Origin: Mobula hypostoma
Lineage: Eukaryota
Length of the DNA: 64,000 nt
Reading direction: 5' to 3'
NCBI RefSeq assembly: GCF_963921235.1
Contig: NC_086097.1
Coordinates: 127,164,001 to 127,228,000 of the forward strand
Position numbers and translations under genes: made by a program. The notes under the pieces were generated by a model. It searched no databases. It was not told the origin of the DNA and saw only the letters and a list, made by a program, of their open reading frames with translations. Of this stretch, positions 11,610 to 62,207 are shown piece by piece (position 1 is the first letter of the stretch; every line of letters starts with the position of its first letter).

Positions 11610-12401
11610 CATAGAAACATAGAAACATAGAAAATAGGTGCAGGAGTAGGCCATTCGGCCCTTCGAGCCTGCACCGCCATTTATTATGATCATGGCTGAT
11701 CATCCAACTCAGAACCCAGCCTTCCCTCCATACCCCCTGACCCCTGTAGCCACAAGGGCCATATCTAACTTCCTTTTAAACATAGCTAATGAACTGGCCT
11801 CAACAGTTTGCTGTGGCAGAGAATTCCACAGATTCACCACTCTCTGTGTGAAGAAGTTTTTCCTAATCTCGGTCCTAAAAGGCTTCCCCTCTATCCTCAA
11901 ACTGTGACCCCTCGTTCTGGACCTCCCCAACATCGGGAACAATCTTCCCGCATCTAGCCTGTCCAATCCCTTTAGGATCTTATACGTTTCAATCAGATCC
12001 CCCCTCAATCTTCTAAATTCCAACGAGTACAAGCCCAGTTCATCCAGTCTTTCTTCATATGAAAGACCTGCCATCCCAGGAATCAATCTGGTGAACCTTC
12101 TTTGTACTCCCTCTATGGCAAAGATGTCTTTCCTCAGATTAGGGGACCAAAACTGCACACAATACTCCAGGTGTGGTCTCACCAAGGCCTTGTACAACTG
12201 CAGTAGTACCTCCCTGCTCCTGTACTCGAATCCTCTCGCTATAAATGCCAGCATACCGTTCGCCTTTTTCACCGCCTGCTGTACCTGCATGCCCACTTTC
12301 AATGACTGGTGTATAATGACACCCAGGTCTCGTTGCACCTCCCCTTTTCCTAATCGGCCACCATTCAGATAATAATCTGTTTTCCTATTTTTGCCACCAT
12401 C
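11610..12401 (-). mobile_element. Young 5'-truncated CR1 LINE
   Basis: Open RT C-terminal frame, (TTTCTATG)n tail and 10-bp TSD ATATAAGCAT (11600-11609 and 12402-12411). Almost identical to 45047-45836. Confidence 0.93.
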
Positions 12402-12411
12402 ATATAAGCAT

Positions 12412-12850
12412 AATTTGGGAGAAAAATATAAATTAAACATAAATTATACATAATTTTTACGAGGGAGAACACAATTTAAAGTAAAGACGAAGTCCATTTT
12501 AGTACAAAGAGTAGCTAGTGTAGTGAGTAGTGTTGTGCTGATTGGCTTAAGAACAGAATAGTTGAAAGGAGGTGGCTGTTCGTAACCCTGGGGGTGTGGG
12601 ATTTGAGACTACTGTACTTCCTGCTCAATGGTAGCTGGAAAAGGATGGCACGGCCTGGATGGAGGGGGTCTTTAATGACGGATGTTGCCTTCCTGAGGTG
12701 ACACCCCTTGTGCTACTACCGATGGTGGGGAGGGATGTGCCCATGATGTATTTAACAAAGTCCACTGTTCTCTGCAGCTACTTCTGTTCCTGCACATTCG
12801 AATTGCTTTATCAGATCATGTCAGGGCATTTTCAGCAGTAGTTCTGTAAA
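12412..12850 (-). mobile_element. Old Rex1-like 3' fragment
   Basis: Resembles 29520-29880 and 62208-62510 (GGATGTTGCCTTCCTGAGG..., CTCTGCAGCT...CCTGCACA). Confidence 0.55.
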
Positions 12851-22364: not shown

Positions 22365-25300
22365 CCCCCAGTGGCCCAATTGAATTGGGACTGAGAGAGG
22401 AGGCAACTCACAGGTCCACATGAGAGATTTAAAAATAAGTGTTTGCAGGCGTTCGGCATTTTCCCGTCAGCCCAATTTAATCGGGAGTGAGAGAGGAGGC
22501 AACTCACAGTTCTGTGAGTGAGATTTAAAAAGGAGTGCTTGAGGGCTTCCAGTGGCCCAATCAAACGGCAATTGATTAGTAAGGGCAAATAAAAATAAGG
22601 TAGGGACGAACGGAGCAGCCACTGTGTGAGTGGACCGGCGTTAGAGTGGGGAAGCTCTGGGTCATTAAGCTTCAGTGAGAACAGGCTTGGGTGAGGTAAG
22701 CATCTGGCAAGTTTCTTCTTCTTCAGTCTTCCTCTGTTAGTGCATAGTTAGAGCAGTGAGAATGACTCAGGGGTTGTGTTGTGTTCTCTGTGTGAGATGT
22801 TGAGATCCTGGGAGATCTCCAGCCCCCGGATAACCTCTTCTGCACCAGGTGACCGAGCTGCAGCTTCTCAGAGAACGTGCTAAAGAACTGGAGCTGCAGC
22901 CTGATGAACTTTGTCTCATTCAGGAAAAAGAGGAGTTGATGGATAGGAGCTACACTGAGGTAGTCAACCCTAAGTTGCAAGAGCCAGGTGCCTGGGTGTC
23001 TGTCAGGAGAGGGAAAGAAAATAGGCAGCCATTGCAGAGTACCCCTGTAACTGTTCCTCCTCACTGTTAGAGGAGTAGATATGAGATTCTGTGGACACCA
23101 TAGAGGCACCTGGATAGGATGTTGCCTCCCAGATGCCAGGGTCAGGGATGTCTCAGATCTGGTCCACAGCATTCTAAAGGGGAGGGTGTACAGCCAGAAG
23201 TCTTGGTACATATTGGCAACAATGACATAGGTAGGAAAAAGGAGGAGGTCCTGAAGTGAGAATTTAGGGAACTAGGTAGAAAGCTGAAAAGCAGGACCTC
23301 CAGAGTAGTGATCTCTGGATTACAGCCTGTGCCACGTGCCAGTGAGGGTAAGAATAGGATGATTTGGCAGATGAATACGTGGCTGAGGAACTGGTGCAGG
23401 AAGCAGGGTTTTGGATTTCTGGATCATTGGGATCTCCTCTGGGGAAGGCTTGACCTGTACAAAAGGGACGGGTTACACCTGACCCAAGCCAGACCAATAT
23501 GGTAGCGGACAGGTTTCCTAGAACTGTTGGGGAAGGTTTAAACTAATCTGGCAGGGGAGTGGGAAACTGAATGATAGGACTAAGGATGGGACAGTCAGTA
23601 TTCCAGTAGAGGCAATGTGTAGTGAAACTGTCAGGAAAAACAGGCAGATGATAGGGCAAAATTGCAGGTAGTGGGATGAGTTGCAGCGTAATGGGGGAAA
23701 AAATTGAAAAGGGTGATGAATACAGGACTGTAAGTGTTATATTGGAATGCACACAGTATATGGAATAAAATAGATGATCTTGTAGTGCAATTAGAAATTG
23801 GCAGGTATGACTTTGTGGGCATCACTGAGTCACCAAAAGAAAATTACAGTTGGGAGCTTAACATTCAACGATATACATTGTATGGAAAGGACAGGCTCTG
23901 TTGGTAAAAAATGAAATCAAATCATTAGAAAGAGGTGACATAGGATTGGAAGATATAGAATTGTTGTAGGTGGAGTTAAGGAACTATAAGGCAACCATGG
24001 CTGACAAGGGAAGTCAAATCCAACATAAAAGCAAAGGAGAGGGCATATAATATAGCAAAAATTAGGGAGAAGCTTTTAAAAACCAGCAGAAACAACTAAA
24101 AAAGCCATAAAGAGGGGCAAGATGAAATATGAAGGTAAGCTAACCAATAATATCAAAGAGGATACAAAAAGGTTTTTCCCTAAAAAGAATAAAAGATAGG
24201 ACAAAGTAGATATCAGACAGCTGGAACTTGACACAGGAGAAGCAGTAATGGGGGAGAAAGAAATGACAGATGAACTGAAAAAGTATTTTCTGTCAGTGTG
24301 GAAGACACTGGCAGTATGCCAGAAGTTCAAGAGTGTCAGGAGGCAGAAGTGAGATCAATTGCTATTAATAGGGAGAAGGTGCTTACGAAGCTGTAAGGTC
24401 TAAAGGTAGTTAAGTCACCTGAACCAGATAGACTACACTCTGGGGTTCCTAAAAAGGTAGCTTAAAATATTATGAAGGCATAAGTAATGACCTTTCAAGA
24501 ATCTGGAGGACTGAAAAATTGCAAATATTACTCCACTCTTCAAGAAGGGAGAGCAGCAGAATAAAGGAAATTATAGGCCAGTTAGCCTGACCTCAGTGGT
24601 TGGGAAGATATTGGAGTCAATTATTAAGGTTTCGGGGTACTTGGAGGAACATGACAAAATAGACCAAAGCTGGCATGGTTTCCTTCAGGGAAGATCTTGC
24701 CTGACAAACCTGCTGGAACTCTTTGAGGAAATAACAAGCAGGATAGACAACGTCAGAGGATGTTGTGTACTTGGATTTTCAGAAGGTGTTTGACAAGGTG
24801 CTGCACATGAGGCTGATTAACACTATGGTATTACAGGAAAGATACTGGCATGGATAGAGCAGTAGCTGATTGGCAGAAGGCAAAGAGTGAGAATAAAAGG
24901 AGACCTTTCTGATTGGCTGCTAGTGACTAGTGGTGTTCCGCAGAGGTCAGTGTTGGGACTGCTTCTTTTTACGTATCTCAATGATTTGGATGATGGAATT
25001 GATGGCTTTGTGGCCAAGTTTGCAGACATTATGAATATAGGTGGAGGGGCAGGTAGTGTTGAGGAAGCAGGGAGTCTGCAGGACTTAGACACACTAGGAG
25101 AACGGGCAGAGAAGTGGCAGGTGGAATACAGTGTCAGGAAGTGTATGGTCATGCACTTCAGCTGAAGGAATAAAAGCCTAGACTATCTTTTAAATGGAGA
25201 AAAAAATGCAGAAAACCAAGAAGCACATGGGCTTGGGAGCCCGTGTGCAGGATTCCCTACAGGTTAATCTGCAGGTTGAGTCTGTGGTGAGTAAGGCAAA

Positions 25301-31465: not shown

Positions 31466-34210
31466 TGGGGACGGGAAGGGCAGAAGATTTTTGGATCATT
31501 GGTCTCTCTTACAGGGAAGGTGGGACCTGTACAGAAGGGACGGTTTGCACCTGAACTGGAGAGGGACTAATATCCTAGCAGGAAGGTTTGTGAATGCTGC
31601 ACAGTAGAGTTTAGACTAAAGTTGCAGAGGGATGGGAACCAGAGTGCCAGAACGGTTAGTGGAGAGTTTGTGAGGCAGATGGTGGTAAGACCTGAGACAA
31701 TGTTAGGAAACAAAATGTTGAGCATGGTGTGACTAGTGTCCTGAGCTGCCTGTATTTCAATGCAAGAGCTATCATAGGAAAGGAGGATAATCGTGCTCAA
31801 GATGAGGTAGCTGGTTTACAAACACAGGCACTGTATAGTGAGGAGAGGCTGTTGATAGGGCAAAACTGCAATCAACAGGATAAGTTGCAACATAAAAGGC
31901 AGACAAAATCGAAAAGGGTGAATACAGGACTGAAGGAGTTGTATCTGGATGTGTGCAGCATATTGAATAAGCTAGATGAACTTGCAGCACAGTTGGGGAT
32001 TGGCAGGTACAATGTTGTAGGCATCACTGTATCATAGCTGAAAGATTATAGCTGGGAGCTTAATGTCCACGGATACACATTGTATCGAAAGGGTAGGCAG
32101 GAAGGCAGAGGGGGTGGCATTGCTCTGTTGGTAAAAAATGAAATCAAATCATTAGAAAGTGGTGACATAGGGTTGGAAGGAGTTGAATCATTGTGGATAG
32201 AGCTCAGGAACTGCAATGGATCCTAATGGGAGTTGCATACAGACCCACAAACTTTAGTAAGGAGATGGCCTACAAATTATAATAGGAGATAGAAAATGCA
32301 TGGCAAAAGGGCAATTTTACAATAGGCATGGGGGACTTCAATATGCAGGTAGATTGGGAAAATGAGGTTGGTGCTGGTTTATGGGGGGGGAGGGGTGTTG
32401 GATTTCTCGAGTGCCTATGAGATGGCTTTTTAGAGCAGCTTGTAATTGAGCCCACTAGGGGATCAGCTATTCTGGATTGAGTGATGTGCAATGAGCCAGA
32501 ATTGATTAGAGAGCTTAAGGTAAAAGAACCTTTTGGGGAAAGTGATCATAATATGATCAAATTCACCCTGAAATTTGAGAAGGAGAAGCTAAAGTCAGAT
32601 GTATCAGTATTACAGTGGTGTTTAAGAAATTAAAGGGACATAAGAGAGGAGTTGGCCAGAATTGTTTGGAGAAACTGGCAGGGATGACGGCAGAGCAGCA
32701 GTGGCTGGAATTTCTGGAAGCAATTCGGAAGGTACAGAATATATACATCCCAAAGAGGAAGAAGTAGTCTAAAGGAAAGATGACACAAATGTGGCTAACA
32801 AGAGATATCAATGTCAACATAAAAGACAAAGGCAGGACATATAATACAGCAAAATTTAGTGGGAAATTAGAAGATTGGAAAACTTTTAAAAACAAACAGA
32901 AGGCAACACAAAAGTAAGCTGGCCAATAATATTAAAGACAATATCAAAAGTTTCTTCAGATACATAAAGTGTAAAAGAGAGGTGAGAGTGGATATCGGAC
33001 TGCTGGAAAATGATGCTGGAGAGGCAGTAATGGGGGAAAATGAAATAGCGAATGAACTGAATAAGTATTTTGCATCAGTCTTCACTGTGGAAGACACTGG
33101 CAGTATGGTGGAAGTCCGAGGTGTCAGGGAGCATCGAGTGTGTGGAGCTACCATAACTAGAGAGAAAGTTCTTGGGAAACTGAAAGGTCCAAAGGTAAAT
33201 AAGTCAGCTGGACCAGATGGACTTCACCCCAGAGTTCTGAAAGAGGTGGCTGAAAGCTTATGGAGACATTATTAATAATTTTTAAAGAATCACTAGATTC
33301 TGGAATCATTCTGGAATGCTGGAAAATTGCAAATGTCACTCCACTCTTCAAAAATGGAGAGAGGCAGAAGAAAGGAAACTACAGGCCAGTTAGTCTGACC
33401 TCAGTGGTTGAGAAGATGTTGGAGTTGATTATTAAGGATGAGGTCTCATGGTACTTGGAGGCACATGATAAGATAGACCATAGTCAGCATGGTTTTCTTG
33501 CCTGACAGATTTGTCGGAATCCTTCGAAGAAATGACAAAGTTTAGACAAAGAAGAATCGGTTGATGTTGTGTACTTGGATTTTCAGAAGACCTTTGACAA
33601 GGTGCCATACATGAGGCTGCATGACAAGCTATGAGCCTGTGGTATTACAGGAAAGATTATAGCCTGGATAAAGCAGTATCTGATTAGCAGGAGGCAAGGG
33701 ATCCTTTTCTGACTGGATACCGGTGACTAGTGGTATTCCACAGGGGTCTGTGTTGGGGCTGATTCCCTTATGTTATGTGGTAATGATTTGGATGATGGAA
33801 TTGATGGCTTTGTTGAAAAGTTTGCAGAGGATATGAAGGTAGGTGGAGGGGCAGGTAGTTTTGAGGAAGTAGAGAGGCTATAGAAGGATTTAGACAGATT
33901 AGGAGAATGGGCAAAGAAATGACAGATAGAATACAGTATCAGGAAGTGTATGGTCATACTCTTCAGTGGAAGAAATGAAAGGGTCGACTATTTTCTAAAT
34001 GGAGAGAAAATACAGAAAACTGAGGTGCAAAGTGCAAGATTCCCTAAAGGTTAATTTGCAGGTTGAGTCTGTGGTGAGGAAGGCAAATGTAATGTTAGCA
34101 TTCATTTCAAGAGAACTAGAATATTAAAGCAAGGATGTAATGTTGAGGCAACACACATCAAAGTCGCTGGTGAACGCAGCAGGCCAGGCAGCATCTGTAG
34201 GAAGAGGTGC

Positions 34211-34543: not shown

Positions 34544-35905
34544 TTAGCGGAAGTTAGAGAAATCGATGTTCATGCCATCAGGTTGGAGGCTACCCAGACG
34601 GAATATAAGGTGTTGTTCCTCCAACCTGAGTGTGGCTTCATCTTTACAGTAGAGGAGGCCGTGGATAGACATGTCAGAATGGGAATGGGATGTGGAATTA
34701 AAATGTGTGGCCACTGGGAGATCCTGCTTTCTCTGGCGGACAAAGCGTAGATGTTCAGCAAAGCGGTCTCCCAGTCTGCGTCGGGTCTCGCCAATATATA
34801 AAAGGCCACATCGGGAGCACCGGACGCAGTATATCACCCCAGCCGACTCACAGGTGAAGTGTTGCCTCACCTGGAAGGACTGTTTGGGGCCCTGAATGGT
34901 GGTAAGGGAGGAAGTGTAAGGGCATATGTAGCACTTGTTCTGCTTACACGGATAAGTGCCAGGAGGGAGATCAGTGGGGAGGGATGGGGGGGACAAATGG
35001 ACAAGGGAGTTGTGTAGGGAGCGATCCCTGCGGAATGCAGAGAGAGAGGGGGAGGGAAAGATGTGCTTAGTGGTGGGATCCCGTTGGAGGTGGCGGAAGT
35101 TACGGAGAATAATATGTTGGACCCGGAGGCTGGTGGGATGGTAGGTGAGGACCAGGAGAACCCTGTTCCTAGTGGGGTGGTGGGAGGATGGAGTGAGAGC
35201 AGATATACGTGAAATGGGGGAGATGCGCTTAAGAGCAGAGTTGATAGTGGAGGAAGGGAAGCCCCTTTCTCTAAAAAAGGAAGACATCTCCCTCGTCCTA
35301 GAATGAAAAGCCTCATCCTGAGAGCAGATGGGGCGGAGACGGAGGAATTGCGAGAAGGGGATGGCGTTTTTGCAAGAGACAGGGTGAGAAGAGGAATAGT
35401 CCAGATAGCTGTGAGAGTCAGTAGGCTTATAGTAGACATCAGTGGATAAGCTGTCTCCAGAGACAGAGACAGAAAGATCTAGAAAGGGGAGGGAGGTGTC
35501 GGAAATGGACCAGGAAAACTTGAGGGCAGGGTGAAAGTTGGAGGCAAAGTTAATAAAGTCAACGAGTTCTGCATGTGTGCAGGAAGCAGCACCAATGCAG
35601 TCGTCGATGTAGCGAAGGAAAAGTGGGGGACAGATACCAGAATAGGCACGGAACATAGATTGTTCCACAAAGCCAACAAAAAGGCAGGCATAGCTAGGAC
35701 CCATACAGGTGCCCATAGCTACACCTTTAGTTTGGAGGAAGTGGGAGGAGCCAAAGGAGAAATTATTAAGAGTAAGGACTAATTCCGCTAGACGGAGCAG
35801 AGTGGTGGTAGAGGGGAACTGATTAGGTCTGGAATCCAAAAAGAAGCGTAGCGCTTTGAGACCTTCCTGATGGGGGATGGAAGTATATAAGGACTGGACA
35901 TCCAT
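34544..35905 (-). CDS. Penelope RT/GIY-YIG endonuclease, 453-aa open C-terminal part
   Basis: DVQSLYTSIP, GVAMGT, RYIDD, FLDL, YKPTD, Cys linker CKQNKCYIC, and VIYCVRC..C..LYIGETRR.L..RF.EH. Confidence 0.92.
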   Translation of the reverse strand: MDVQSLYTSIPHQEGLKALRFFLDSRPNQFPSTTTLLRLAELVLTLNNFSFGSSHFLQTKGVAMGTCMGPSYACLFVGFVEQSMFRAYSGICPPLFLRYIDDCIGAASCTHAELVDFINFASNFHPALKFSWSISDTSLPFLDLSVSVSGDSLSTDVYYKPTDSHSYLDYSSSHPVSCKNAIPFSQFLRLRPICSQDEAFHSRTREMSSFFRERGFPSSTINSALKRISPISRISALTPSSHHPTRNRVLLVLTYHPTSLRVQHIILRNFRHLQRDPTTKHIFPSPSLSAFRRDRSLHNSLVHLSPPSLPTDLPPGTYPCKQNKCYICPYTSSLTTIQGPKQSFQVRQHFTCESAGVIYCVRCSRCGLLYIGETRRRLGDRFAEHLRFVRQRKQDLPVATHFNSTSHSHSDMSIHGLLYCKDEATLRLEEQHLIFRLGSLQPDGMNIDFSNFR

Positions 35906-36619
35906 GGTGAAAATAAAGCGGTGTGGGCCAGGGAACTTAAAATCATCGAAAAGTTTAAGAGCGTGAGAAGTGTCACGAACATAAGTCGGAAGGGATTGAA
36001 CAAGGGGTGATAAAACAGTGTCGAGGTATGCAGAAACGAGAACAAGGGGTGTTGAGGCCTCACTTGGAGTATTGTGAGTGGTTTAGGGCCCTTTATCTGA
36101 GAAAGGATGTGCAGAAACGGGAGAGGGTTCAAAGGAAGTTCACAGAAATGATTCCAGGATTGAATGGTTTGTCATATGAAGAACGCTTGTTGGCTCTGGG
36201 CCTGTATTCACTGGAATTCAGAAGAATGAGGGGGGACTTCATTGAAAGCTATCAAATGGTGAAAGATCTTGATAGAGTGGATGGGGAGAGGATGTTTCCT
36301 ATGGTGAGACAGTCTAACACCAGAGGACATAGCCTCAGAATAGAGGGGTGTCCTTTTAGAATGAAAATGAGGAGGAATTTCTTTAGCCAGAGAATGGTGA
36401 ATCTGTGGAATCCTTTGCCACAGGCAATTGTGGAGGCCAAGTCTTCACGTATATTTAAGGCAGAGATTGATAAATTCTTGGTCAGGGCTTGAAGGGATAC
36501 AGGAGATCGGGGCTGAGAGGAAAATTGGATCGGCCATGATGAAATGGTGGAGCAGACTCGATGGGTCAAATGGCTTCTGTATCTTATGGTGTTTGGCCAC
36601 GTGAACAGTGTGCACAGGA

Positions 36620-38399: not shown

Positions 38400-38788
38400 C
38401 TTGAAATCTCCTGATTTAGCGTTAGAGGATGCTTTATATTCCTCTTTTTGCAAAGGGCAGCCCGTTTCGGTGGAGAAAAGGGGGAATAAATTGGAGGAAG
38501 CAGCACAACGAAATCCCGCCTATGCTGGGAGCAAATGGAGCACGTGTCAATCAGATGACGTAACAGATTTTGGCGTGTTACCTGCTGCGAAGTTCGAATC
38601 GTTCATTGATAACATGTGAAGAGCAGAGATAGAGTGTGAGAGTGTGCGGTACACACATGGACTGAGTCGTTGCAGATATAGGGTGTATTTATATATATAC
38701 ATTTATTTATATTTTTAAAATATATATAGAGAGAGTTGTATTTTGTTTCACATCGAAAAGCAAAGTTTGTATCTGTCTGTTCTGGACA
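38400..38788 (+). promoter_or_regulatory. Putative promoter and 5' leader of the BMP7-like gene
   Basis: Repeat-free, CpG-containing DNA directly upstream of the ATG. CCCGCC at 38515, E-box CACGTG at 38541, CRE-like TGACGTAA at 38556 and a TA-rich tract near 38690. The TSS is not determined. Confidence 0.55.
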
Positions 38789-39215
38789 ATGGGACCATTT
38801 GCAGTCGAGCGGGGAGTCGCGCTCGGGTTGTTGTGGAGTTGTTGCCTGGTGGTCGAGTGGCTGTCCGTGGCGGGTAGCTTGCTGCTGGACACGGGCAGCC
38901 ACAGCGATCTCCACTCGAGTTTTGTGCACCGCCGCCTCAAACACCACGAGAAGAAGAACATGCAGCGGGAGATCCTCTCCATCCTGGGGCTGCCGCACCG
39001 GCCCAGACCTCACTCGCACGGGAAGCACAACTCGGCGCCCCTCTTCATGCTTGACCTGTACAATGCCATGTCCACCGGGGGCGAAGAGGAGGAGGAAGAG
39101 GGTTTTTCGCATCGGTACAGACCAGTCTTCACCACGCAGAGTCCACCGCTGGCCAGCTTACAGGACAGCTCTTTTCTCAACCAGGCGGACTTGGTCATGA
39201 GTTTCGTGAACCTAG
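38789..39215 (+). CDS. BMP7: Bone morphogenetic protein 7-like, coding exon 1 (signal peptide and N-terminal propeptide)
   Basis: [45 protein letters not shown] and [20 protein letters not shown] match the vertebrate BMP7 prodomain. Strong Kozak context (ACAATGG). Phase-1 donor CTAG|GTAAG after 39215. A BMP8-type paralog is not excluded. Confidence 0.85.
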
Positions 39216-41221
39216 GTAAGATTAAACTTTATAAATGAAAGCACACAGGCAGTACTCGTATGCATACTTACATCCGCACAGATATACACCGACTGTTCAC
39301 ACGTGCACATCTGCGCATGGACACGGAGACCTGCATATCTCTCTCCCAGACACGTACGCACGCAGGTTTAAACCCACCGTTTTCACAGAGTTCTTCATTT
39401 AAAATAAATCGATAAAATGTTTGCGGCTTTCCTTTTTTAAACCAAAGCTGATTAGAATCAACATCCAGGCAACAGAGTGTTCATTTTTGTTTTCAGGAGT
39501 GATTTGTTTTTATCAGATCGGAGTAGTTCGCAGTACCAGTAACTCAAAGAGTGGGTGAATTTTCTGCTTCGCATCCATAAAACAATTTATTAAACGTACC
39601 CGCATTATGACGGGGAACGCTAGCGCCGTGCAATACTTTAAAGTGCCCAGTGATCTAAGTGTGGACGGAGCCAAAACATGTGCTTTCGGGAGTTCAGTTA
39701 GATGCCTCCGACCCTGTTGCTGGGGCTTTCTTTGAATGTGTTAATTCAAAAGAACAAAAACAAAACCTTTGGCGTGGAATCTCGGAATGCCACTGTTTTG
39801 GTAGAGTTCTTAATTAGTATTGCGAAACTGTATACTCCGTGATAACGCGGCAAAGGAAGATATTTTAATCGTAAACTTACAAGCCATTATCCTAAATTGT
39901 GCTATGTGTGATTTATGGGGTGCAATGCACCTGCTACAGTGTTTCTCTGGAAGTAAACCGCGCGATTTTACTTTACTGGACTTCATTCGTAAATTGTACT
40001 GTATGTTTAATATTCTTCAATGAAACAGTGTGAAATCCCCTGTATGTTGCAATCTTGCAGCTGTAATCTTTAGTTAACTGGCATGCATTCTGACGGCTCG
40101 TTGAATGCAAACGTGCTATTTACTGTGTCAGATCTCGAAAAGTGCTCGGGGAGACCTTTCTCCTCTGTAAGGTGGGCCACCGTTCTGCACGCTTCTCAAA
40201 GCTTCCAGTCTGCGTGGTAGCTGACTTGGGATCTTTCTAACATCAACACCAGATTCTTTGACTGGTCTGTTTATTTGCCATAAATCTGACTGATGTTTGG
40301 AGACATTACCGAGGCTACTGTGCTCCGAAGCGGAAGAAGATTAAAAAAAATTGGCAAATAATGGTGCCTGTTAAAGCCGATCCCACTGGGTAAATAGTAT
40401 GTATCTACAGTCAAAACATCCTTGCTTAATAATGATGATGTGTTTGGAAAAAACAGAGAAAGGAAATAGTTCTGTATTTTTCTGGCAGAATCCAGATGAT
40501 TTTGCAGAGTATGTTTCCACCATAAATATCGAGCTGTCTATTGGATAAGAGGCACTTCTAGTAAATTAAACGCAGTTTTCGACGTAATTTAAAAGCTTTA
40601 CACTTCAGTGAAGATTTAAGTTAAATTAGCACGATAAGTAAATGCAGATATTCGTTCACGCTAAACTCCTGAAAGGATTCCACACCTGTGAAGCAACTTG
40701 ATGCTACTGGACTTTGGTTAGCGAGACTAGAGCTTTCATGGAGACATGGAGTGTGACCATTCACCCATTCGTTGTCACCTCAACCCTCCATCAGAAGCGG
40801 CTGTTTGCGTTTGTTACCCGGTGGCAGAAATCCAATGTCAAACTGCTAATATAAAATCGCATTGGGATGTCTCTAAAACTTGGAGTCACTGATGCATCAT
40901 GTCCTTGCTGACTGCCCACAACAATCCCATTCACCAGAAGACACTCCGTAGCCTTCCATGCCTTGGCAGTTCAAGAGCTAGTCCAGATGCTTGAAAGCCT
41001 TTGCTTACATCACCCACTCCATTCCAATAGAGGAAAATGTCCGTCCTCTGATTCCTTCTAAGCTTCCTTTCCCTTACCCTAACCCTATCCCCTTTAGTTT
41101 AGACACCTTGGTTATAAGAAAAAGTTCCCTGTTACCTACCCTATCTATGCCCACTCGCTCTTAACTTCCTTTGGTTCTACCCAGTTTCTTCCCCCCCCCC
41201 CCACTTCTGCCTCTTGTGCTC

Positions 41222-44262: not shown

Positions 44263-45046
44263 GCTAGTGTGCTGAGAATGGCTCCAGAGTTCCGGGTGCT
44301 AGGATCAGGGACATCTCAGATTGAGTCCATGACACTAAGTTAAAGGACAGGACCATCAGGGTTGTGATCGCAGGATTGCTACCTGTGCCACATGCTAGTG
44401 AGTTCAGAAATAACGAAGATCAGATCACACAGTTTAACACGTGGCTAAGAAGTTGGTGCAGGAGGGTGGGCATCAGATCTTTTGGATCATTGGGCTTTCT
44501 TCCAGGAAAGTGGGACCTGTACAGAAGAGATGTTTTGCACCAGAACTGGAGGGGGACAAATATCCTAGCGGGAAGCTTTGCTAATGCTGCACCGGGGGGT
44601 GGGGGGGGGCACGCGGTGGGGGGGTTATTCTAGATTTGGGAACCAGAGTGCCAGAACAGATAGTGGAGTGGTTGTAGAGAAAAATGTTGTTAAGCCTTCA
44701 TACAAGGTCCGGAATCAAAGGATTTAGCACTGTGGCACTAATGTTCTGAGCTGCATATATTTCAATGCAAGAAGTATTGATGGTAAGGTGGATGAGCTTA
44801 GGACATGGAATTATGACATTGTTGCCATTAATGAGATTGGCTGCAGGAGGGGCAGGGCTAGCAGACCAATATTCCAGGTTTCCGTTGTTCTAGATGTGAT
44901 AGAGCAGGAGAGATTAAAGGGGAAGGGCTGGCATTGCTAGTCAGAGAAAGGGTCACGGAAGTGCTCAGTCAGGACAGACTGGAGAGCTCATCTAGTGAGG
45001 CTTTATGAGTAGAACTGAGGAATGAGAAATGTACAGCCAAGTTAAT

Positions 45047-47280
45047 ATAGAAACATAGAAACATAGAAAATAGGTGCAGGAGTAGGCCATTCGGCCCTTC
45101 GAGCCTGCACCGCCATTTATTATGATCATGGCTGATCATCCAACTCAGAACCCAGCCTTCCCTCCATACCCCCTGACCCCTGTAGCCACAAGGGCCATAT
45201 CTAACTTCCTTTTAAACATAGCTAATGAACTGGCCTCAACAGTTTGCTGTGGCAGAGAATTCCACAGATTCACCACTCTCTGTGTGAAGAAGTTTTTCCT
45301 AACCTCGGTCCTAAAAGGCTTCCCCTCTATCCTCAAACTGTGACCCCTCGTTCTAGACCTCCCCAACATCGGGAACAATCTTCCTGCATCTAGCCTGTCC
45401 AATCCCTTTAGGATCTTATACGTTTCAATCAGATCCCCCCTCAATCTTCTAAATTCCAACGAGTACAAGCCCAGTTCATCCAGTCTTTCTTCATATGAAA
45501 GACCTGCCATCCCAGGAATCAATCTGGTGAACCTTCTTTGTACTCCCTCTATGGCAAAGATGTCTTTCCTCAGATTAGGGGACCAAAACTGCACACAATA
45601 CTCCAGGTGTGGTCTCACCAAGGCCTTGTACAACTGCAGTAGTACCTCCCTGCTCCTGTACTCGAATCCTCTCGCTATAAATGCCAGCATACCGTTCGCC
45701 TTTTTCACCGCCTGCTGTACCTGCATGCCCACTTTCAATGACTGGTGTATAATGACACCCAGGTCTCGTTGCACCTCCCCTTTTCCTAATCGGCCACCAT
45801 TCAGATAATAATCTGTTTTCCTATTTTTGCCACCAAAGTGGATAACTTCACATTTATCCACATTAAATTGCATCTGCCATGAGTTTGCCCACTCACCCAA
45901 CCTATCCAAGTCACCCTGCATCCTCTTAGCATCCTCCTCACTGCTAACACTGCCACCCAGCTTCGTGTCATCCGCAAACTTGGAGATGCTGCATTTAATT
46001 CCCTCATCCAAGTCATTAATATATATTGTAAACAACTGGGGTCCCAGCACTGAGCCTTGCGGTACCCCACTAGTCACCGCCTGCCATTCTGAAAAGGTCC
46101 CGTTTATTCCCACTCTTTGCTTCCTGTCTGCTAACCAATTCTCCACCCACACCAATACCTTACCCCCAATACCGTGTGCTTTAAGTTTGCACACTAATCT
46201 CCTATGTGGGACCTTGTCAAAAGCCTTTTGAAAATCCAAATATACCACATCCACTGGTTCTCCCCTATCCACTCTACTAGTTACATCCTCAAAAAATTCT
46301 ATGAGATTCGTCAGACATGATTTTCCTTTCACAAATCCATGCTGACTTTGTCCGATCATTTCACCGCTTTCCAAATGTGCTGTTATCACATCCTTGATAA
46401 CTGACTCCAGCAGTTTCCCCACCACCGACGTTAGGCTAACCGGCCTATAATTCCCCGGTTTCTCTCTCCCTCCTTTTTTAAAAAGTGGGGTTACATTAGC
46501 CACCCTCCAATCCTCAGGAACTAGTCCAGAATCTAACGAGTTTTGAAAAATTATCACTAATGCATCCACTATTTCTTGGGCCACTTCCTTAAGCACTCTG
46601 GGATGCAGACCATCTGGCCCTGGGGATTTATCTGCCTTCAATCCCTTCAATTTACCTAACACCACTTCCCTACTAACATGTATTTCGCTCAGTTCCTCCA
46701 TCTCACTGGACCCTCTGTCCCTTACTATTTCTGGAAGATTATTTATGTCCTCCTTAGTGAAGACAGAACCAAAGTAATTATTCAATTGGTCTGCCATGTC
46801 CTTGCTCCCCATAATCAATTCACCTGTTTCTGTTTGCAGGGGACCTACATTTGTCTTTATCAGTCTTTTCCTTTTTACATATCTATAAAAGCTTTTACAG
46901 TCCGTTTTTATGTTCTCTGCCAGTTTTCTCTCATAATCTTTTTTCCCCTTCCTAATTAAGCCCTTTGTCCTCCTCTGCTGAACTCTGAATTTCTCCCAGT
47001 CCTCAGGTGAGCCACTTTCTCTGGCTAATTTGTATGCTACTTCTTTGGAATTGATACTATCCCTAATTTCTCTTGTCAGCCACGGGTGCACTACCTTCCT
47101 TGATTTATTCTTTTGCCAAACTGGGATGAACAATTGTTGTAGTTCATCCATGCAACCTTTAAATGCCTGCCATTGCATATCCACCGTCAATCCTTGAAGT
47201 GTCATTTGCCAGTCTATCTTAGCTAATTCATGTCTCATACCTTCAAAGTTACCCCTCTTTAAGTTCAGAACCTTTGTTTC
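45047..47280 (-). mobile_element. Young 5'-truncated CR1 with uninterrupted 697-aa RT ORF (45145-47238)
   Basis: NYRPVSLTS, YLDFQKAFDKV, GVPQGSVLGP and KFADD motifs with no stops, plus a (TTTCTATG)n tail. Confidence 0.96.
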
Positions 47281-48619
47281 TATATTGAACCTTTGATACT
47301 ATATTATAGATCACCCAACAGTCCCTTAGATTTGAGGAGCAAATAGATTGCAGACTGTTACAAGAAACATTAGGTTGCGATAGTAGGTGATTTTAACTTT
47401 CAACATATTGACTGGACTCCTTTACTGTAAGAGGGCTGGATGGGATAGACTTGGTCAAATCCTGTTCTGGAAAGTTTCCTTAATCAGTACATAGAAGCCC
47501 TGACTAGAGAGAGTGCAACTATAGATCTCCTATTAGGGAATGAGACAGGGTAGGTAACAGAAGTTTGTGTAGGGGGGGAACACTTTGCATCTATTGATCG
47601 TAATACCATTTGTTTCAATGTCTGTTTCTGTGCTGTAGTGTTGTATTATTCTGACTCTATAGTGCAGGTGAGTGGTAAATGCTGGGGGGAGCTTATAGGA
47701 GTGCGGTAAGAATAAAATGGCATTGGGGTAGGTGGGTACTTGAAGGTCTGATTGAGTGGGTAGTGGAGGCAGAGACTTTCACAACATTATGAAGCATCCA
47801 GACAGGGACATGAGTAACAAGGCATTAAAGACGATACAATAAATTCTGATATGCGGCAGTATTGCAGTTGGTCTGCATGGATGTCATGGTTTGAAGGGAT
47901 GTTTTCTGTGCCTATAACTCTACTCTAGCCAGACATTAAATGGCTGAACCTAGATGAGGAAGAATGTATTACGTTGCAACAGAAAGAAAGGTGGTGAGAA
48001 CAGCATCACCTGATATTTTCCTCACTCTGAACTAAACTCTAAATCAATTTGAGGACTTGGCCAGGTGTGAGGGATTAACTGGAAAATTGAAGGTGATATC
48101 CTGTTTGGAGGCTATGGGAGAATTATCCCTGACAGAGGGAGTTGGGGAGTGATCTGTGTTTGTTGGTTGAGAAGTTCGCTGGTTAAGAAATACTAAGTGA
48201 GAGGCAATTATACACTTAAAACATAACACTGGGTGGACAGTGCAGAGTTTGGGGTCTTGGGAGGAGGGGTGGTTGTGAAACAAGGCTTATGGAAAAGATG
48301 AGCGAAGAGGGAGCAGGAACAGGAGGAAATTACAAATTGATAGAGAGCTTGAGTTCAGATAGCAGACTGGTCAGAAGAGAGGAGGGCTGTTGCATGCGTG
48401 GTCTTGATCTTTGAGATAAAGGAGTGCATGCATTCATGAAGCTCCAAGGAGCCCGGGAACATTCTGTTGTGTGAAGGCATTGTGGGCCATCTTCCCCTGC
48501 CAGGAAGTTACCTGGGTAAAATCATAGGAAGATAGTTCAATAGAATGGCTAAAGCTGACCAAGGGCAACAATGGCTGTTGTGTACCAAGTTAGCTCAGGA
48601 TGGGGAGCGGGGGATGGAA

Positions 48620-57552: not shown

Positions 57553-58307
57553 TGGTCATCCTGTGGATAGCATGCTATGGGAGTGATGCTCTGGGGATGC
57601 AGAGAGGATCTGACTGGGAGGACTCCTCTCACCGCCAGCCAGGCACGGGTCTTGGTGCCTGTTGGTGAGATTTGCTGATGAACCATTCTACCAGATGGTC
57701 TGGATGGTCACATAGGAAACCGCCCCACTGTGCCCATTGAGTCCTTCTCCTGTGGTATCCACAGGGTGTTCTGTACAGACCACTGCCTGATGGACTTGTG
57801 GTCACAGATGTTGGTCTGGAGGACTGATAGTGTAGCAATGTCCAGCTGACTGGGGCATTGCCTGCCAACAAGGGGCATGGATAGAATCTCAGCACATAAT
57901 GGTACTTGGTGCCCATGCATTTTGGTTCCACACAGAATCAGAATCAAGGTAAGTATCATTGGTATATGTTGAGCAGTTTGTTGTTTTGCAGTAGCAAACC
58001 ATGCAATACATAATTTTTAAAAACTATAAATTACAATAAGAGGCTGCTCCTAAAATATTGAGTGCATTTCTGTGGCAGTTTGAACGGGGCACGACTGCAC
58101 AAGCGTGTGAAAGTCGGCCCGTGAGACAGTGGGAGAATTTTAAAAATGAGTCAGATTAATGGAGCGGGCGACGGAGTAGTGGGAGACAGAGTAGGAAGGC
58201 TTTGGCTCGAGAGGCTTCAGTGAGCAGAGGCTGAAGACGAGCTTCTTCCCAGTGAGGTAAGGCCGGGTAAGCTCCTTTAATTACTCTAATTAACTTAGGA
58301 GTAGGCA

Positions 58308-59228
58308 ATGGAGGCAGCAGTTTGCAGTATGTGGGAAGTCAGGGCGAGCACAATTGTCCCTGATGACTACACCTGTAAAAGGTGCATCCAGCTGCAGCTC
58401 CTGACAAACCGAATTAGGGAACTGGAGCTGGAGCTGGATGAACTTCGGATCATTCGTGAGGCAGAGGCAGAAATTATCAGGAGTTACAGGGAGATAGTCA
58501 CCCCTTAAAGTCAGGAAGCAGGTAGCTGGGTGACTGTCAGGAGAGGGAAGGGGAATAGACAGAATGAGCAGAGCACCCCTGTGGCCATTACCATCAACAA
58601 TAAGTATATCGTTTTGAATACTGTTGGAGGGGACGACCTACCAGGGACAGGTTGCAGTGGTTGCATCTCTGGCACCGAGATGGGACCCTCAGCTCAGAAG
58701 GGAAGGAGGGAAAAGAGGAGAGCAGTAGTGATAGGGGGTTCGATAGTTAGGGGAACAGATAAGAGGTTCTGTGGAAGAGATCGAGAATCCCGGATGGTCT
58801 GTTGCCTCCCTGGTGCCAGGGTCCACGATATCTCCGATCGAGTTCTCAGTATTCTCAAGAGGAAGGGTGAGCAGCCAGATGTCGTGGTCCATGTAGGGAC
58901 CAATGACGTGGATAGGAAGAAGGAGGAGGTCCTGCAAAGAGAATTTACGGAGTTAGGTGCAAAGTTGAAGGACAGGACTTCCAGGGTTGCAATCTCAGGA
59001 TTGCTACCCATGCCACGTGCTAGTGAGGCTAGAAAAGGGAAGATAATGCAGCTAAATACGTGGCTAAGGAGTTGGTGCAGGAGGGAGGGCTTCATGTTTC
59101 TGGACAATTGGGCCTTGTTCCAGGGAAGGTGGGACCTGTTCCGACTGGACGGGTTGCACCTGAACTGGAGGGGGACTAACATCCTTGTGGGAAGGTTTGC
59201 TAGTGCTATTCCAGGGGGTTTAAACTAG
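58308..59228 (+). pseudogene. CR1 ORF1: Zn finger, leucine zipper and SGNH/GDSL-like esterase; one in-frame stop at 58506-58508
   Basis: C..(C)..YTCKRC, LTNRIRELELELDEL, VIGGSIVR (GDS decayed), CLPGARV, HVGTND and DGLHLN motifs. Confidence 0.88.
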
Positions 59229-59230
59229 AT

Positions 59231-62126
59231 TTGCAGGGGGAGGGGAACCAGAGTGTTAGAGCAGATAGTGAGATGGAGGAGGATAAAGGCCATGTGAGAA
59301 CTGCAAGTATAGGGCATAGAGTAAAGCCAGATCTAACATATAAAGAGGCTTTGATGAAAGAAAAACAGAATAAAGGGTGTAAAGGTAGTAAGGTGGAAGG
59401 GCTAAAGTGTGTGTACTTCAATAAAAGAAGCATCAGGAACAAAGGTGATGAACTGAGAGCTTGGATACATACATGGAATTATGATGTAGTGGCCATTACA
59501 GAGACTTGGCTGGCACCAGGGCAGGATTGGATTCTCAATATTCCCGGATTTCAGTGCTTTAAAAGGGATAGGAGAGGGAAAAGGGGAGGAGGGGTGGCAT
59601 TACTGGTCAAGGATACTATTACAACTACAGAAAGGGTGGGTAATGTAGCAGGATCCTCTTTTGAATCAGTATGGGTAGAAGTCAGGAACAGGAAGGGAGC
59701 AGTTACTCTATTGGGAGTATTACATAGGCCCCCTGGTAGCAGCAGAGATACCGTGGAGCAGATTGGGAGTCAGATTTTGGAAAGGTGCAAAAATAACAGG
59801 GTTGTTACCATGGGTGACTTTAACTTCCCTATTGATTGGCACCTGATTCGTTCCAATGGTTTAGACGGGGCAGAGTTTGTTAAGTGTGTCCAGGACGGAT
59901 TCCTGTCACAGTATGTTGACAGGCCGACTAGGGGGAATGCCATACTAGATCTAGTATTAGGTAACGAACCGGATCAGGTCACAGATCTCTCAGTGGGTAA
60001 GCATCTGGGGGACAGTGACCACCGCTCCTTGGCCTTCAGCATTATCATGGAAAGGGATAGAATCAGAGAGGACAGGAAAATTTTTAATTGGGGAAGGGCA
60101 AATTATGAGGCTACAAGGCTAGAACTTACAGTTGTGAATTGGGATGATGTTTTTGCAGGGAAATATACTATGGACATGTGGTCGATGTTTAGGGATCTCT
60201 CGCAGGATGTTAGGGATAAATTTGTCCCGGTGAGGAAGATAAAGAATGGTAGGGTGAAGGAACCATGGGTGACAGTGAGGTGGAGGATCTAGTCAGGTGG
60301 AAGAAGGCAGCATACATGAGGTTTAGGAAGCAAAGATCAGATGGGTCTATTGAGGAATATAGGGTAGCAAAAAAGGAGCTTAAGAAGGGGCTGAGGAGAG
60401 CAAGAAGGGGGCATGAGAAGGCCTTGGCGAGTAGGGTAAAGGCAAACCCCAAGGCATTCTTCAATTATGTGAAGAACAAAAGGATGACAGGAGTGAAGAT
60501 AGGACTAATTAGAAATAAAGGTGGGAAGATGTGCCTGGAGGCGGTGGAAGTGAGCGAGGTCCTCAATGAATACTTCTCTTCGGTATTCACCAATGAGAGG
60601 GGACTTGATGACGGTGAGGAAAATATGAGTCAGGCTGATGTTCTGGAGCATGTTGATATTAAGGGAGAGGAGGTGTTGGAGTTGTTAAAATACATTAGGA
60701 CAGATAAGTCCCCGGGGCCTGACGGAATATTCCCCAGGCTGCTCCATGAGGCGGGGTAAGAGATTGCTGAGCCTCTGGCCAGGATCTTTATGTCCTCGTT
60801 GTCCACGGGAATGGTATTGGAGGGAGGTTGTCCCCTTGTTCAAAAAAAGGTAGTAGGGATAGTCCAGGTAATTATAGACCAGTGAGCCTTACGTCTGTGG
60901 TGGGAAAGCTGTTGGAAAAGATTCTTAGAGATGGGATCTATGGGCACTTAGAGAATTATGGTCTGATCAGGGACAGTCAGCATGGCTTGTGAAGGGCAGA
61001 TCGTGTCTAACAAGTCTGATAGACTTCTTTGAGGAGGTGACCAGTCATATAGATGAGGGTAGTGCAGTGGATGTGATCTACATGGATTTTAGTAAGGCAT
61101 TTGACAAGGTTCCACATGGTAGGCCTATTCAGAAAGTTAGAAGGCATGGGATCCAGGGAGATTTGGCCAGGTGGATTCAGAATTGGCTTGCCTGCAGAAA
61201 GCAGAGGGTCGTGGTGGAGGGAGTATATTCGGATTGGAGGGTTGTGACTAGTGATGTCCCACAAGGATTGGTTCTGGGACCTCTACTTTTCGTGATTTTT
61301 ATTAACAACCTGGATGTGGGGGTAGAAGGATGGGTTGGCAAGTTGGCAGACAACGCAAAGGTTGGTGATGTTGTGGATAGTGTAGAGGATTGTCGCAGAT
61401 TGCAGAGACATTGATAGGATGCAGAAGTGGGTTGAGAAGTGGCAGATGGAGTTCAACCCGGAGAAGTGTGAGGTGGTACACTTTGGAAGGACAAACTCCA
61501 AGGCAGAGTACAAAGTAAATGGCAGGATACTTGAAAATGTGGAGGAGCAGAGGGATCTGGGGGTTACCTCACAAGTAGATAGGATAGTTAAGAAAGCTTA
61601 TGGAGTGTTAGCTTTCATAAGTCGAGGGATAGAGTTTAAGGGTCGTGGGGTAATGATGCAGCTCTATAAAACTCTGGTTAGGCCACACTTGCAGTACTGC
61701 GTTCTGTTCTGGTTGCCTCACTATAGGAAGGATGTGGAAGCATTGGAAAGGGTACAGAGATTTACCAGGATGCTGCCTGGTTTAGAGAGTATGTGTTATG
61801 ACCAGAGATTAAGGGAGCTGGGGCTTTACTCTCTGGAGAGAAGGAGGATGAGAGGAGACATGATAAAGGTATACGAGATATTAAGAGGAATAGATAGAGT
61901 GGACAGCCAGCGCCTCTTCCCCAGGGCACCACTGCTGAATACAAGAGGACATGGCTTTAAGGTAAGGGGTGGGAAGTTCAAAGGGGGTATTAGAGGAAAG
62001 TTTTTTACTCAGAGAGTGGTTGGTGCGTGGAATGCACTGCCTGAGTCAGTGGTGGAGGCAGATACACGAGTGAAATTTAAGAGACTACTAGACACGTATA
62101 TGGAAGAATTTAAGGTGGGGAGTTAA
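59231..62126 (+). pseudogene. CR1 ORF2: APE endonuclease and reverse transcriptase, frameshifted
   Basis: YFN.RSI, ITETW, GGGVAL, MGDFN, LDLVL, SDH, MDFSKAFDKV, VPQG.VLGP and KLAD motifs across ORFs 59231-60292, 60265-60759, 60989-61414 and 61419-62126. Confidence 0.92.
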
Positions 62127-62207
62127 ATGGGAGGCAGGATTTAAGGGTCGGCACAACATTGTGGGCCGAAGGGCCTGTAGTGTGCTGTACTGTTCTCTGT
62201 TCTATGT

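Follow-up and report, generated by a model that had tools for sequence, protein, structure and literature searches.

A candidate programmed −1 ribosomal frameshift at the ORF1/ORF2 junction of vertebrate CR1 retrotransposons, described from a Mobula hypostoma locus

The CR1 element and its ORF1/ORF2 junction

A decayed CR1 long interspersed nuclear element (LINE) spans approximately 58300-62200 on the plus strand of a 64,000-nucleotide stretch of Mobula hypostoma DNA (contig NC_086097.1, positions 127,164,001 to 127,228,000; the whole stretch is referred to as the window, and positions are counted from its first letter). The two open reading frames (ORFs) of this element meet at a sequence with the form of a −1 ribosomal frameshift site, and it is this junction that we consider here. 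The features that bear on it are as follows.

58308..59228 (+), ORF1: Cys-rich N-terminus, coiled coil and SGNH/GDSL esterase (PF13472, E 2.7e-11)
59201..59203 (+), stop in the −1 frame that sets the 5′ limit of ORF2, five codons ahead of TTT (sequence)
59216..59222 (+), second in-phase heptamer, G_GGU_UUA, overlapping the next; restricted to lineages in which GGT precedes Leu
59219..59225 (+), slippery heptamer U_UUA_AAC, the last two sense codons of ORF1 (sequence; consensus of loose read ends; published rows)
59226..59228 (+), ORF1 stop immediately 3′ of the heptamer, TAG here and TAA or TGA in relatives (sequence)
59225..59413 (+), linker from slip site to endonuclease, open in the −1 frame only (stop counts)
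59236..59245 (+), G-rich tract GGGGGA(G/T)GGG, 10 nt after the heptamer, candidate stimulator (59242 is G or T in reads)
59402..60292 (+), APE endonuclease region of ORF2 (PF03372, E 1.9e-16)
60253..62126 (+), remaining ORF2, the reverse transcriptase region (assigned by eye), split over several frames in this copy

The element has the two hallmarks of a CR1 with an esterase ORF1, an SGNH/GDSL esterase in ORF1 and an APE endonuclease at the N-terminus of ORF2; canonical vertebrate CR1 typically has such an ORF1, and the junction sequence agrees with consensus rows labelled CR1 in the same survey (PMC13343379). The Cys-rich part and coiled coil of ORF1 are taken from alignment. In this copy ORF1 carries an in-frame premature stop at 58506-58508 ahead of its natural TAG at 59226-59228, and the closest homologues of its protein are ray proteins of 72-75% identity. 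A further relative, P0006, labelled at NCBI as a Pseudomonas aeruginosa SGNH hydrolase, is 66% identical to the CR1 ORF1 across its length and, judged from this similarity, is likely fish DNA inside a bacterial assembly.

The final codons of ORF1 read GGG GGT TTA AAC TAG (59214-59228), so that, as a preliminary description of this DNA had pointed out, the heptamer T-TTA-AAC at 59219-59225 lies exactly in the ORF1 phase. As in a canonical −1 signal, an X_XXY_YYZ heptamer in the phase of the upstream ORF is accompanied by a downstream ORF that overlaps in the −1 frame and is open from the site. TTTAAAC and the overlapping G_GGU_UUA are the sole in-phase XXX-AAA/TTT-H heptamers within 58512-59225, and the probability of such a heptamer at one fixed place by chance is about 0.0014 given the composition of ORF1. 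The −1 frame reads TAG(59201) TGC TAT TCC AGG GGG TTT AAA CTA GAT TTG CAG, and the ORF1 and ORF2 frames overlap over 59204-59228. The −1 frame is closed five codons before TTT, and therefore ORF2 can be entered only at or after the last seven codons of ORF1. A −1-frame stop is found at the matching place in the window copy at 23537 (23519-23521) and, by eye, in one row each of alligator (TGA) and dogfish (TAG) in the published consensus set; its presence in distant lineages may reflect selection to abort earlier slips. In the subfamily of the copy at about 44600 a TAA stands in the −1 frame five codons upstream of the heptamer. The preliminary description was right that the −1 frame is open from 59204 with its first ATG at 59273. 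The endonuclease frame that it gave as 353 codons also exists, but that length counts from TTG 59231, and from stop to stop (59204-60292) it is 362 codons.

Downstream of the site, the 62-codon linker contains no stops in the −1 frame, compared with 7 and 10 in the other two, and an open frame of this length arises in 0.6% of 20000 shuffles; the −1 frame ends at 60292 solely through breakage of this copy. The interval 59090-59440 was matched at 80% likeness to the public runs X21, X2 and X5 (9840, 5411 and 4895 records), which pool several CR1 subfamilies and possibly include the source organism; run X23 gave 0 reads at the same likeness. The A at 59273 is G in 557/606 raw reads of X21 and in 63266.6/63437.3 (X2) and 94864.3/96163.1 (X5) of contig depth, more than 98% in each, and the family thus reads GTG at this place. 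Likewise the T at 59355, the middle base of the ATG at 59354, is G in 1427/1558 reads, a family reading of AGG, and in 54900.8/55417.5 and 157738/160837.5 of contig depth, again more than 98% each. Both ATGs are therefore private to this copy. The next in-frame ATG, at 59810, is the first that is not private and lies in the MGDFN motif, the counterpart in alignment of LIMGDFN around residue 143 of the L1 endonuclease (E 5e-4); translation from this ATG would consequently leave out more than half of the endonuclease domain. A genuine downstream ATG was among the findings that the preliminary description said would refute its proposal; none is present in this family, and ORF2 here lacks a start codon of its own.

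Conservation of the slip site

Sequence reads and published consensus rows both indicate that the junction is held constant at the nucleotide level. No position within 59214-59241 is among the best-supported 40 variants in the reads, a soft bound given 158 further variant rows beyond those 40, and third positions of ORF1 at 59102-59189 vary widely, many at 20-80%. The loose ends of diverged copies keep GGGTTTAAACTA(A/G), with 630 + 816 reads in X21, 276 in X2 and 253 in X5, and read depth climbs again across 59222-59245 following a dip. The published rows come from the supplement of a 2026 survey of vertebrate CR1 (PMC13343379) and were inspected by eye over the first 400 nt of each; the remainder may contain further cases for or against, and species are inferred from row labels. 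In these rows 17 of 23 matches to TTTAAACTA fall at the ORF1/ORF2 junction, covering ray, sawfish, catshark, dogfish, chimaera, coelacanth, bowfin, halosaur fish, bullfrog, alligator and crocodile, and a bearded-dragon (lizard) row carries the heptamer with a TGA stop. Upstream anchors recovered 20 rows, 11 of them at the ORF1 end, with heptamer and stop in 10/10 of those that show the junction. Leu is preceded by GGT, GCT, CTT, GAT, TAT or TGT, in every case a T-final codon, and all three stops follow the heptamer in one row or another; the heptamer is therefore the constant part. The site is thus conserved beyond amino-acid need, with some room left for double coding, and retention of the heptamer across jawed vertebrates supports the reading given in the preliminary description. 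A palindromic constraint on GTTTAAAC was considered and rejected, as the heptamer is preceded by G, C, T or A depending on the row. In rows ScyCan_CR1-1a, SquAca_CR1-17a and SquAca_CR1-6c, the slip site and a TAATG stop-start occur at one place, and the dogfish rows SquAca_CR1-18 and SquAca_CR1-3 also contain GGTTTAAACTA ahead of ORF1, in the 5′ leader. Searches for DNA of relatives gave no matches in the viral, metagenome or prokaryote contigs covered.

The C-termini of ORF1 proteins provide a second view of the site. From 75 homologues examined, 22 are without the esterase motif and 3 read through; in the 50 that end near the motif, the C-terminus is Leu-Asn in 45, including frog, and two of the five exceptions group with a medaka protein in a separate clade. 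The residue before Leu-Asn (−3) is one whose codons are unable to end in T in 1/45 cases, compared with 24/45 at −4, although the test is a weak one in that positions −6, −7, −9 and −10 likewise show only 1-3/45. Searching 1.84 billion representatives with a profile that itself contained the terminal Leu-Asn added 140 distant proteins. The esterase motif lies close to the C-terminus in 94 of them, and 60 of these 94 end in Asn; Leu-Asn matches come from swallow, snake, two lizards, eel and sturgeon, among others. Asn is preceded by Leu (43), Gly (10) or Lys (3) in 56/60, and the share of Leu, Gly, Lys or Pro before internal Asn is 20%. Leu, Gly and Lys are the residues of the XXA codons UUA, GGA and AAA. 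The residue preceding Leu-Asn has pyrimidine-only third bases in 20 proteins and purine-only in 0, and that preceding Gly-Asn or Lys-Asn has 0 and 8, respectively (12/0 and 0/7 after similar tails are collapsed). This switch is the pattern that X_XXA_AAC sites of the forms U_UUA_AAC, G_GGA_AAC and A_AAA_AAC would predict at the protein level, and all three are among the four heptamers described as the most slippery on mammalian ribosomes (PMC5009743).

The frame relation is preserved directly in proteins predicted from mutated copies. In P0068, P0071, P0072 and P0121 the ORF1 helix runs straight into FKL and the linker, and P0068, P0071 and P0072 continue into the endonuclease (FKL-x-x-QG); the same −1 relation therefore holds in other subfamilies. 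A consensus in which ORF2 lies outside the −1 frame, which the preliminary description had also named as refuting, did not emerge. A separate esterase ORF1 clade (P0152, P0174, P0185, P0196, P0198, P0219, P0223) shows x-Lys-Asn at a constant position some 10 residues from a C-terminus that varies, the outcome expected of an A_AAA_AAC site without an adjacent stop.

Three further junction copies are present in the window.

23537..23546 (+), second CR1 subfamily with the same heptamer followed by TAA; −1 frame open for 44 codons
31610..31619 (+), third junction copy, with the one-base change TTTAGAC followed by TAA
44590..44665 (+), fourth junction copy, site broken by G-rich expansion

The copy at 31540-32730 appears chimeric, with a junction and endonuclease start like the 44520-45050 subfamily and, near 31790, a jump to a linker and second endonuclease start like 23540-23900. 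Near-identical young CR1 ORF2 pieces occur on the minus strand at 45145-47298 and 11709-12443, one of them open for 717 codons, and being 5′-truncated they are without the junction. Other parts of the window contain, by eye, an open frame of 512 codons with the look of a Penelope-type reverse transcriptase and a GIY-YIG end (34544-36082, minus strand) and broken hAT-like transposase frames (7118-9815, minus strand), together with what is presumably an exon of a BMP5/6/7-type gene resembling the signal peptide and start of the prodomain (38666-39238, plus strand).

A frameshifting model and its alternatives

The sequence comparisons support a model, to which we assign a probability of roughly three in four, in which CR1 ORF2 is made by programmed −1 ribosomal frameshifting as a fusion of the ORF1 esterase with the endonuclease and reverse transcriptase, in the gag-pol fashion that the preliminary description had proposed. 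Most ribosomes would terminate at the ORF1 stop, and a small share would slip as tRNA-Leu and tRNA-Asn move from UUA-AAC to UUU-AAA and translation continues with CUA. The expected junction peptide would be ...GGLN-LDLQG...; the frame TTT AAA CTA GAT TTG CAG had been named correctly, but FKL is what reading straight through that frame would give, not the product of a tandem slip. A low slip rate would suffice, because one or two ORF2 molecules per RNA have been hypothesised to be enough for L1 (PMC2951350). The adjacent stop and the G-rich tract are candidate stimulators. The tract, which had been noted beforehand and is borne out at 59236-59245, follows the site with a spacing of 10 nt in rays, catshark and crocodilians and 9 in the chimaera row (GGGGGA(T/G)GGG), and the G before Gly-Asp-Gly occupies the third position of a CAG, CCG or TTG codon, a hint that the nucleotides themselves may have a role. 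A calicivirus-type UGGGA motif can be ruled out, since it lies downstream of the stop and thus on the wrong side.

Several observations weigh against this model, among them the behavior of the RNA downstream of the site. Folding and covariation of this region, suggested earlier as a check, revealed neither a significant fold nor covarying pairs: in the three copies folded, the 100 nt that follow the site show no more stable folding than shuffles (z −0.71, −1.57, −1.58), and the three-copy consensus fold is without a compensated or covarying pair. No hairpin or pseudoknot at 5-9 nt downstream is evident in these copies, in folds made without pseudoknot modelling, in agreement with the earlier failure to identify a clear pseudoknot. 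The Vienna model gives no G-quadruplex, and the best long-range partner in the 3′ part of the element, 61906-61930, falls within the shuffled range (−22.3 kcal/mol, compared with a shuffle mean of −19.7 and a best shuffle of −24.8). The minimum-energy fold has an 8-bp stem (59229-59236/59301-59308) that is similar in the 23537 copy and missing from the third; neither is significant. The C content of the linker is 9%. The conservation evidence has weaknesses of its own, in that the upstream anchors were picked after the junction rows had been inspected and so are not fully independent, nor are the related lineages, and F-K-L in ORF2 plus L-N-stop in ORF1 would fix nearly identical bases. At the protein level, 34/94 motif-bearing distant proteins have a last residue other than Asn, and P0064, a gene model from chimaera outside the pattern count, ends in TIF. 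The Gly-Asn and Lys-Asn proteins belong mostly to one clade and are evidence at the protein level alone, and they may derive from CR1, RTEX or Penelope-like elements, an SGNH esterase being possible in each of these groups (PMC3905857). Finally, 3/17 published junction rows read TAATG and so give ORF2 an ATG of its own in frame, a SART1-like stop-start, and 3 more carry ATT, GTG or AGG at the place of the ATG.

These last rows bear on two alternatives that invoke a fresh start on ORF2. In one, which we regard as unlikely, ribosomes would terminate on ORF1 and reinitiate as in L1, without a fixed AUG, at a near-cognate or arbitrary codon in the ORF2 frame to give free ORF2p. Such a mechanism likewise predicts an open linker, TTG 59231 and GTG 59273 are available in the ORF2 frame, and L1 ORF2 translation is reportedly AUG-independent. 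The ORFs in L1-type reinitiation do not overlap and are separated by a spacer ahead of an ORF2 AUG, whereas here the frames overlap and the family has no AUG before 59810. Translation of ORF2 in L1 and SART1 does depend on that of ORF1, via reinitiation or recruitment (PMC2881922). Reinitiation nevertheless leaves unexplained why the full in-phase heptamer persists between a variable preceding residue and a variable stop, and why Leu-Asn switches to Gly-Asn or Lys-Asn; nor is there a conserved near-cognate codon after the stop, 11/17 rows being without one at the first position. Coupling of the SART1 type at UAAUG (or UAAUH/UAGUG), in some or all lineages and possibly alongside frameshifting, is considerably less probable still. 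It is favored by the TAATG rows (two with dogfish labels, one catshark) and by the fact that UAAUG coupling (for SART1 cited in PMC2881922) needs ORF2 in the −1 frame, as here. The heptamer, on the other hand, is kept in all 17 rows, 14 of which have no AUG at this place, and the window copies show no overlapping UAAUG: the 59219 family reads TAGAT and its neighbors TAATC and TAAAG.

The remaining alternatives require no recoding signal and fit worse than frameshifting. A sequence that has to encode both F-K-L and L-N-stop would come out as TTTAAAY for that reason alone, so that constraint on the two proteins, with ORF2 entered in some other way just upstream, could in principle account for the heptamer; we give this very little credence. 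Since the −1 frame is closed five codons upstream with no AUG between, F-K-L is reachable only by a shift, and Gly or Lys replaces Leu in distant ORF1s, while two L2-type-looking esterases and their clade are without the ending altogether. Least probable in our judgment is that a spliced RNA makes ORF2, with CTA(A/G)...TTGCAG|G (59225-59237) serving as branch point and acceptor. L1 and zebrafish LINEs provide precedents for splicing, and TTTGCAG|G is found at shark and ray junctions. The gap from branch point to AG would be only about 8 nt, however, lineages with TAG lose the branch A, and the DNA runs show no pile-up of molecules starting at 59237, where there is just one contig joint; moreover, crocodilian rows have CCG or TTG in place of CAG (PMC13343379).

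Known recoding systems and implications for CR1

The arrangement proposed for CR1 most closely recalls coronavirus (IBV) ORF1a/1b and retroviral gag-pol, in which an in-phase U_UUA_AAC ends an abundant upstream ORF, the polymerase ORF, in the −1 frame, has no start of its own, and ribosomes that do not shift stop at once (PMC5009743). The CR1 site differs in that no stimulatory pseudoknot or hairpin was found in its folds. In addition, CR1 is a non-LTR retrotransposon without a protease, and therefore the fusion would likely stay uncut, unlike gag-pol. Frameshifting of the −1 type has precedent in non-LTR elements. The APE-type LINEs TRE5-A and TRE3-A of Dictyostelium are stated to need it for ORF2 (PMC5911963), although they belong to another clade with an amoeba host and a different ORF1. 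Some Penelope-like elements, also non-LTR, place a frameshift between the reverse transcriptase and the ORF ahead of it (PMC8557442), and some carry an SGNH esterase (PMC3905857), but they have a GIY-YIG endonuclease and a reverse transcriptase of another lineage, and a pseudoknot is drawn for them (PMC8557442). With SART1 and L1, CR1 would share a bicistronic LINE RNA in which ORF2 translation is tied to ORF1 (PMC2881922), and with SART1 also an ORF2 in the −1 frame, as follows from UAAUG; these elements make free ORF2p from a start codon, whereas the CR1 family has no AUG between stop and endonuclease. For a stimulator without RNA structure, the arterivirus PRRSV, with its nsp1beta/PCBP frameshift, offers an analogy, having a low-complexity motif about 10-11 nt 3′ of the slip site (PMC5009743). 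The likeness goes no further than analogy, in that the PRRSV motif is C-rich, protein-bound and 11 nt after the site, and that of CR1 is G-rich. A more ambitious proposal, which we consider doubtful, is that CR1 has used a gag-pol-style −1 frameshift for >400 million years without RNA structure, driven by the adjacent stop and by a G-rich motif 10 nt downstream that would be bound by a protein (ORF1p or a host G-tract binder), and that the esterase ORF1 has moved between retroelement lineages together with its X_XXA_AAC site.

A frameshift signal in CR1 was not found in the literature searched, although the founding CR1 papers fall outside that coverage and an earlier suggestion is possible; one may already be present in the CR1 papers of 1997 on chicken and turtle or in Repbase notes. 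The word frameshift is absent from the text and visible supplement of PMC13343379 and from the accessible parts of PMC4120745 and PMC3905857, CR1 is absent from the first 300,000 of 449,034 characters of PMC5009743, and term searches of the accessible parts of PMC8535693 and PMC5006619 gave no statement on CR1 frameshifting. Reviews explain translation of LINE ORF2 by reinitiation or coupling and call it unconventional (PMC2881922).

CR1 is the dominant retrotransposon of most vertebrates (PMC13343379), while the synthesis of LINE ORF2 has been worked out for L1 and SART1 only (PMC2881922). A conserved slip site predicts that the CR1 product is a fused esterase-endonuclease-reverse transcriptase protein and not free ORF2p, and would explain ORF2 annotations that are without an AUG. 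The site constitutes a short cassette amenable to testing, and it sets how expression constructs of active CR1 are to be read. If the model is correct, CR1 would represent a widespread case of −1 frameshifting in vertebrates, seemingly without the usual RNA structure.

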